A stretch of 64,000 bases of DNA from Octopus vulgaris (lineage: Eukaryota). The position numbers and the translations under genes were made by a program. The notes beneath the pieces were generated by a model. That model did no database searches. It was not told the DNA's origin and worked only from the letters and a program-made list of their open reading frames with translations. The DNA is taken from positions 67,642,001 through 67,706,000 of the forward strand of contig OX597828.1 of the NCBI GenBank assembly GCA_951406725.2. The letters are read 5' to 3'. Positions within the stretch are counted from its first letter, which is position 1. Every line of letters begins with the position of its first letter. Positions 33,775 to 34,720 of the stretch are shown one piece after another.

Positions 33775-34711
33775 TTTTGGTGTCCTGTACTCATATATGC
33801 GTATATATGTACATGTAGAGGTAGGTACGTACATATATGTTTATATATATGCATATGTTTTATTTTATTTATTAATATATTATATGACGAAACGCACGCA
33901 TCCGTTTTAAGTAAGATTGTTCTTTATATCAAGTTTTGTTCTTGATATTAACTTTGATGCGCACTCTTAACCTTTCTGTCCCATCCCTTTCTCAACCTTC
34001 ATTCTTTGATTTCCTTTTCCTCTACTTAACTTGTCTCTTTCTCTCTCTCATTCTTCACTCTCTCTCTCTCCCTCTTCATTCTTCATGGTTTCCTCGCAGC
34101 CATTCCCCTTCTTCTCTCCCTTTCTCTTGCTCCTCCTCCCCCTCCCGTCGTTGACCCGCGACGAGACTTCCGCTGCTGTCTTTCTGGCCTGGCCCTCTCA
34201 AGGTATGGACGACAATTCTTTTTGCTCCGCTCGTAGTTCGTAAAACATTCCGCGTTCGCAATACTTTTTTTCGTTCGGCGTTAACAGCCCTCCTTATCTT
34301 GTTTTTCCTTGTCCTGTCTTTTACTGTTTATAATTTGTACTGTCGTTACTGTCCTGTTTTTGTTACCTTTTTTTACCCCTCTACGAAAAGATCTCAGAAT
34401 TTTAATTGATTTGCTTTTCGCAGGAAGGAAAGTTTCTTGTCGAAGATACGTCTCGCTTTCACCTTCGAAACGTAGAGTAGATGAGACCATAGCGACTGAA
34501 GAAGGGGTTTTTCTTTGTGTTAATTGTCCTGTACTCTATTTTTTTGTTGTTTAAAAAAATGTCCAGTTCCTTTGGTTTGTGTCTATGTTTTCGTTTCTCA
34601 TTGTGTTCGACGTCCTTTTGGTGTCTGTACTCATATATGCGTGTATATGTACATGTAGAGGTAGGTACGTACATATATGTTTATATATATGCATATGTTT
34701 TATTTTATTTA

Positions 34712-34720
<9 letters not shown>
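33775..34720 (+). mobile_element. ~840 bp terminally redundant non-coding element (PLE pLTR/retrozyme-like) carrying a permuted hammerhead
   Basis: ~105 bp direct repeats at 33775-33880 and 34616-34720. A diverged paralog lies at 46967-47857. Confidence 0.75.
34447..34508 (+). ncRNA. Non-circularly permuted hammerhead ribozyme candidate
   Basis: tacGTC tcgct ttc accttc GAAA cgta [16 nt] agcga CTGAAGA aggggt. Helices: III tacgt/acgta, I tcgct/agcga, II aggggt/accttc. Confidence 0.7.

Follow-up and report, generated by a model that had tools for sequence, protein, structure and literature searches.

The window analysed here, i.e. the whole stretch of 64,000 nucleotides from Octopus vulgaris to which all positions refer, contains two copies of a repeat unit on the plus strand. 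Copy 1, a member of subfamily A, is a full 841-bp unit (33880..34720) which ends at the fixed 3' boundary of the family and is followed by (TA)n. It is preceded by a partial upstream copy of its own 3' end (33775..33879, plus strand), a terminal redundancy of 105 bp: positions 33775-33879 recur at 34616-34720 with one substitution and one indel, at a period of 841. Copy 2 belongs to the young subfamily B and consists of a full 836-bp unit (47022..47857) with a partial upstream copy (46967..47021, plus strand; redundancy of about 55 bp). The copies are 76% identical over 989 aligned columns and have an identical 3' boundary with a TA run directly after it. The original prediction had described both loci as one unit plus a partial upstream copy of its own 3' end, with a common 3' boundary in TA-rich sequence and varying 5' redundancy, and this was confirmed at both.

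A third, rearranged copy had been overlooked. It is a paralog of copy 1 inside an 18.3-kb duplication and retains the 5' 76 bp (15490..15565) and the 3' 326 bp (16113..16438), both on the plus strand; its middle is swapped for a 551-bp piece of the downstream flank, and the 5' strand of helix IV (see below) is lost. The duplication is near-identical and in tandem (about 3500-21700 against about 22800-41000, 95-99.8% identity), with an N gap of the assembly (22719-22818) where the two halves meet. Either a duplicated segment of the chromosome or a duplicated haplotype may underlie it. The window also contains a second dispersed repeat family with internal tandem units of about 184 bp, which occurs in both orientations (189-967, 20017-21171, 38255-39447, 48718-50829, 53450-54082, 56097-56396 and 60355-60654). 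Outside the element, a neighbouring 5'-truncated Penelope-like element (PLE) of the Hydra clade with RT thumb, GIY-YIG and a type I-like hammerhead lies on the minus strand (32212..33550), head-to-head with copy 1 across the same TA-rich tract.

Motif searches of the genome (2.8 Gb, 227 contigs), which count units and not insertions, revealed 1,215 exact matches to a ribozyme pattern of 26 specified bases and 2,055 matches to a 30-base 3' motif. Both reversed controls gave 0 matches, so the family is not a product of chance. It is dispersed over many chromosomes with one fixed end, its unit length ranges from 836 to 857 bp and its subfamilies are about 67-99% identical. No conserved ORF was found in seven natural units, read both linear and doubled. 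The longest stop-free stretch on either strand of the doubled units measures 279 aa (subfamily B, plus strand) and is unconserved, and those of the other six units reach at most 157 aa; the earlier observation of no long ORF was thereby confirmed in the seven units. The resemblance of the unit start to a GIY-YIG C-terminus, which had also been proposed, did not hold up. The peptide is unconserved, runs into a stop a few codons later in subfamily A and reads otherwise in subfamily B, and the best tblastn match reached an E value of 0.058 with three local RT proteins as queries, two of them with a C-terminal GIY-YIG. No tRNA gene was detected by ARAGORN, which degenerate heads can escape, within 33500-48200. 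Equal-length LTRs and terminal inverted repeats, which the original prediction had named as speaking against it, were both absent: the redundancy varies between copies from about 55 bp to several units, and the best 30-nt terminal inverted match (22-24/30) involves AT-rich ends only. A metagenome scan with the ribozyme pattern gave 0 matches. Most of the unit is also present in contigs from four runs that are presumed to be RNA, in a form from which ends, strand and level are not readable. We conclude that the element is a real, recently active, non-autonomous retroelement.

Predicted ribozyme structure and its occurrence in other retroelements

Covariation predicts a permuted hammerhead with a four-way junction in copy 1 (34375..34508, plus strand) and a corresponding ribozyme in copy 2 (about 47529-47663, plus strand). 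With about 135 nt and six helices it is larger than a plain permuted hammerhead. Its core elements follow the non-circular S-G-C order, i.e. cleavage site, GAAA (34467-34470 in copy 1, to which the following positions refer) and CUGAAGA (34496-34502). The predicted cut lies behind the GUC triplet (34450..34452), after 34452 or unit position 573, and in copy 2 after 47606. Stem I (34453-34457 : 34491-34495) and stem III (34447-34451 : 34470-34474) flank this site. In stem II (34424-34428 : 34462-34466) the partner of the strand before GAAA is located about 42 nt upstream; the stem reads GAAGG/CCUUC in subfamilies A-C and E and GAGCA/UGCUC in subfamily D. The strand after CUGAAGA forms helix IV (34375-34380 : 34503-34508) with a strand located further upstream than the stem II partner, and hairpin P (34381-34423) exactly fills the gap between the upstream strands of helix IV and stem II. 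Helix V (34432-34436 : 34483-34487) connects stem I to stem II at their distal ends, using the strand after the upstream stem II partner and not the 3' tail. According to this model, a perfect four-way junction would be inserted at A9/G10.1, with the opening of the chain placed in the new helix, and stem II would be completed by a fourth strand.

For the covariation analysis, 27 sequences chosen for intact and diverse ribozymes were aligned (30 pairs, 806 cells). Pairing was found in 89% of the cells, compared to 40-49% in slid controls of the six-helix model. Double changes are present in all six helices and occupy 103 cells, against 33.9 ± 5.4 after shuffling, in an alignment whose rows are related and for which 43 of 500 shuffles had at least as many pairs with double changes as were observed. 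Covariation across subfamilies is seen in stems I and III, and helix V is 80.7% paired with 2 double-change pairs. The model with the upstream partner was suggested by older relatives, and in all 7 of the 7 families compared this partner is stabler than the adjacent strand. Two other arrangements were rejected. A plain type-SGC fold with adjacent stem II was 93% paired, mostly through G-U, with one double-change pair and slid controls at 60-73%. Adding a fourth helix, formed by the linker with the 3' tail, gave no gain over shuffles in 29 of 29 rows.

The ribozyme of copy 1 may have decayed, since hairpin P contains a weakening A at 34383. In the youngest subfamily-B haplotype (L063/L064, L067, L090, L145 and L283), which shows near-zero divergence between loci, C11.1 is changed to U and the closing pair of stem II becomes G-U. 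An Rfam scan of the window gave 303 matches, and the 150 of them that were listed are microsatellite-driven miRNA hits with no hammerhead. Two units folded as circles were more stable (-143 and -155) than 12 shuffles each (-122 ± 4 and -138 ± 7), a small control.

Relaxed ribozyme patterns returned 958 matches (control 30) and 1,636 matches (control 126), and most of those listed belong to two restriction-endonuclease LINE families or to remnants of Naiad PLEs. The two LINE families, one of which has a 1,175-aa ORF, are presumably Hero-like. They carry the six-helix design in the 3' UTR (L209, L210 with a 3,738-bp period, L285-L313 and L331), and their full-length copies are preceded by a partial 3' copy in a PLE-like manner. 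In addition, decayed Naiad 3' ends carry the design (L299, L303, L308 and L314-L330), two of them with a Naiad-like RT peptide retained upstream (L317 and L329). The helices of the LINE and Naiad ribozymes are unrelated in sequence, and their layout equals that of the unit. An adjacent stem II would be C-C mismatched, weak or unable to form in these ribozymes, and single decayed copies often break one helix. A separate 74-bp tandem repeat (L212, C2 about 81,277,260-81,277,610) contains GAAAC and CUGAAGA motifs in each of its five units.

Naiads have been reported to be without canonical hammerheads, eight of them being marked as "half core" (Craig 2021, PMC8557442). Reading the available supplement of that study by eye, we found the six-helix layout in the published 3' UTRs of Naiad_Obim and Naiad_Ovul, and the S-G-C order with a 10-bp and a 7-bp stem in the spider element Naiad_Smim. 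The ribozyme core of the Naiad at L303 resembles the published 3' end of Naiad_Ovul. The design thus appears, from sequence, to explain some of the cases without a canonical hammerhead, but not all of them, because in the same reading Naiad_Esco looked degenerate, none was seen in Naiad_Adux and the nematode entries have the usual hammerhead order.

Insertion ends, arrays and the proposed cycle

For the analysis of insertions, we followed the 3' motif along chromosome 1 for its first 100 matches, regardless of their 5' ends, and merged array members, which gave 84 insertions (L037 was moved to a second set; L152 and L153 share a flank and are probably one event). The 3' end is fixed: 70 of the 84 align to the last base of the unit, and 7 extend beyond it: a 51-nt tail follows in 2 of them, and in the other 5 the sequence continues into another unit. 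At least five TA units are found at the end of 70 of the 84 insertions, compared to 6% of random 67-nt zones at LINE loci. An adjacent inverted piece was flagged in 8 of the 84, and 18 were counted as multi-unit insertions. Head-to-tail arrays comprise 2-6.2 units with one hammerhead per unit; array L144 consists of an inverted 5' piece and 6.2 units. The anatomy of PLEs includes partial tandems, inverted 5'-truncated copies, optional tails and (TA)n targets (Craig 2021, PMC8557442), and the tails come from two internal RT start sites (Frangieh 2024), as far as the available parts of these sources go. The fixed 3' end, ragged 5' ends, 5' inversions and arrays in (TA)n are the signature of PLE insertion.

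The 5' ends of the insertions accumulate at the predicted cut. Within -1 to +15 of this site, which was predicted beforehand, whereas the edges of the peak window were chosen after seeing the data, 11 of the 84 insertions begin, a rate 5.1 times that of the downstream flank and 9.5 times that of the upstream flank (scan test, p = 0.002 under a constant null and 0.034 under a two-level null). Four insertions counted as single-pass (L173, L226, L236 and L252) are really parts of longer ones, and none of them lies in the peak. In the second set of 28 loci obtained with a 3' probe, this peak window contains 5 ends (ratio 5.5, p = 0.007), and the drop on its upstream side is less marked (4 ends at -51 to -2). 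This pile-up is an indirect sign that points to cleavage after GUC. If the RT stalled at the fold instead, ends would be expected near its 3' edge at about +55, not at +4 to +13. Of the insertions that reach the peak window, 52 of 63 pass beyond it. Most copies pass the cut site, so that many templates would have been uncut or religated.

We consider it probable that the element is a PLE-driven non-coding retrozyme, of which a predicted self-cutting and probably part-circular RNA is copied into (TA)n. In the proposed cycle, tandem or terminally redundant copies would be transcribed. The ribozyme would fold in S-G-C order, with the upstream strand supplying stem II through the junction between A9 and G10.1, and would cut after GUC at unit position 573/585, as the 5'-end pile-up suggests. 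Monomers would then be ligated into circles. A GIY-YIG endonuclease, presumably that of the PLE, would nick (TA)n, and the RT would start at a fixed internal site 250-290 nt downstream of the cut or sometimes at a second one about 50 nt further on, which would give rise to tails. On cut linear RNA the RT would run off at the cut and leave copies of about 250-275 bp. On a circle or an uncut multimer it would pass the site, and copies of any length up to 6.2 units could result. Copies of these lengths are indeed present in the genome.

The arrays bear on the shape of the template. A comparison of 25 subfamily-B arrays with 60 units gave 0.39% substitutions within and 1.24% between arrays, i.e. 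units are 3.2-fold more alike within an array. The units are internally identical in 12 of the 25 arrays. Twelve array-private variants, found in 5 arrays, are common to all covering units, and 34 are restricted to some units. Such homogeneity is what a single rolled circular template would predict, and it can also result if the source array that was copied was already homogeneous or if units were exchanged unequally later on. The mosaic array L144, with 89 differences in 13,551 compared positions, is not explained by one circular template. It would fit better with an unlikely variant of the cycle which keeps the PLE driver and does without a circle, either through linear read-through multimers that are partly cut by a slow ribozyme or through jumps of the RT between monomers. 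Type-SGC ribozymes are indeed slow, with 0.007-0.19 per min in the available data (Eckert 2023, PMC10085705), and possible source arrays exist in the genome. In the Anolis PLE, the one PLE studied in vitro, cleavage was reported as unneeded for insertion and uncut RNA was the main substrate (Frangieh 2024, available part). On the other hand, template jumping would give the divergence seen between loci inside the arrays, whereas 12 of 25 are identical inside and 5 share private variants, and the retrozymes known from animals do form circles (Cervera & de la Pena 2020, PMC7229834, as far as available).

Candidate drivers

Returning to the part-circular, PLE-driven retrozyme, two young PLE families of the genome are candidate drivers. 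The family of the neighbour of copy 1, which was assigned to the Hydra clade by motifs given in the available part of Craig 2021, is very young and abundant and has RWK, DKT and CxCX5C motifs and intact 717-aa frames. Among 22,897 first-look candidates, 150 of 150 scored matches showed 98-100% identity, and inverted 5' copies are frequent (L141-L143, L147 and L148). Pfam gave no family for the 717-aa protein. The type I-like hammerhead of this family reads CCGAAGA for CUGAAGA in the window copy and in L141. The second family has intact 784-aa frames and many near-identical copies; we call it Neptune-like, a label of our own that rests on a CX2-5CxxC linker. The 3' end of its 4,433-bp unit (L346-L353) occurs at two positions in (TA)n, separated by 34 nt. 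The 784-aa frame is preceded by a purine-rich stretch that is possibly coding, and the unit also contains a hammerhead-like motif whose core is non-standard. Both families end in (TA)n and have tails. The Naiads found in the genome are decayed, with a best other copy at 76% identity and a longest frame of 292 aa.

An origin of the unit from the Hydra-clade PLE, the Neptune-like PLE, the Hero-like LINE or the Naiad remnants was rejected, as no significant match to any of them was found. The best match (E = 0.011) is a 20-nt low-complexity stretch on the reverse strand, and Naiads gave only AT-rich matches of about 35 nt; unit matches in L315 and L328 are separate older copies of the unit. The original prediction had suggested a search for longer copies attached to an RT/GIY-YIG ORF; the three full-length autonomous families and the Naiad remnants showed no homology to the unit. 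Of its central proposal, the PLE-type non-coding retroposed unit with a permuted hammerhead stands, and the origin as a pLTR or deletion derivative of a local PLE is not supported, for want of homology. As the unit and the autonomous elements compared with it have no significant sequence in common, the driver is assigned by anatomy only, and this anatomy makes a PLE the likely driver, be it one of the candidates or a member of a further family that may exist in the genome.

Mobilisation by a LINE, e.g. by the Hero-like restriction-endonuclease LINEs, appears very improbable, even though two LINE families have the same ribozyme design in the 3' UTR and one of them is terminally redundant when full-length. 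Most copies of the LINE with the similar ribozyme stop in front of CAT/CAA-like sequence, with few listed ends in TA repeats, whereas 70 of 84 unit copies end in (TA)n. No 3' sequence is common to LINE and unit, and tails and inverted 5' copies are PLE traits in the available parts of Craig 2021 (PMC8557442) and Frangieh 2024. There is equally little to recommend a satellite or SINE-like repeat with an inactive relic of a hammerhead-like motif and arrays from unequal crossing-over or assembly error. In its favour, the window lies within a near-identical duplication with a gap, and whole-unit changes of copy number could follow insertion. Against it stand the compensatory changes that each of the six helices shows between subfamilies of about 67-99% identity, the 5'-end peak at the cut in two sets, and copies without a tRNA head that are dispersed on many chromosomes with one fixed end.

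Relation to known systems and significance

The favoured PLE-driven retrozyme resembles the non-LTR retrozymes of animals, which in the available literature carry a type I hammerhead and typically measure 150-450 bp (Cervera & de la Pena 2020, PMC7229834), with units of up to 972 bp (Li et al. 2026, bioRxiv 10.64898/2026.07.22.740005). Like these, it is non-coding and of low GC content (39-40%), has one hammerhead per repeat and occurs as monomers to multimers, and for these as well mobilisation by PLEs through circles was proposed. Unlike them, the unit lacks a type I hammerhead and shows the S-G-C order with a split C block, it is 836-857 bp long, its copies are mostly dispersed and 5'-truncated, and no pLTR homology to a local PLE was found.

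With the type-SGC hammerheads, as presented in the available part of Eckert 2023 (PMC10085705), the predicted ribozyme shares the S-G-C order, all core nucleotides, a short linker from stem I to stem II and a helix that joins the distal ends of these stems (the "I" helix of Eckert, helix V here). It differs in block C (CUGAnGA plus a stem II strand), which that source takes to be continuous: here helix IV and hairpin P separate its two parts, and the strand that completes stem II is located 5' of the cut. The type-SGC examples of that source were found in metatranscriptomes, and none of them derives from a known organism's genome. One- and two-nucleotide insertions into the hammerhead core, and no helix, are listed in the available part of Perreault 2011, and a tested precedent for a helix insertion at A9/G10.1 was not found in the literature as far as it was accessible.

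Naiad PLEs have (TA)n targets, tandem and inverted insertions and tails in common with the unit, but are autonomous and 3.4-4.4 kb long. Chlamys derivatives such as MRC1 are likewise non-coding, form pLTRs and occur as multicopy head-to-tail insertions. Unlike the unit, they are green algal and generally have 3' sequence in common with an autonomous partner; the available text notes no hammerhead for them (for both groups Craig 2021, PMC8557442, in part). Our literature searches, which covered few subscription papers, found no description of the six-helix topology or of such a cephalopod element.

Taken together, we lean towards an active hammerhead of undescribed topology, a design that would have moved between unrelated retroelements: a circle-forming retrozyme, Naiad PLEs and two LINE families. 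It would be the hammerhead that Naiads were thought to lack, and the copies of the unit would record both the cut site and rolling-circle reverse transcription. If the ribozyme cleaves, non-circularly permuted hammerheads are no longer confined to environmental RNAs of unidentified origin but also occupy thousands of sites in the genome of an animal, and the hammerhead core tolerates the insertion of two helices at a step that was assumed to be uninterruptible. Descriptor-based surveys of ribozymes and retrozymes which seek type I would then miss this class, and the statement that Naiads have no canonical hammerheads would be explained in concrete terms. With this family, the role of the hammerhead in Penelope-type transposition can also be tested, as copy ends would mark the cut and arrays would record the template. 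This role is the question which the one in vitro study of a PLE, in its available part, left open (Frangieh 2024).
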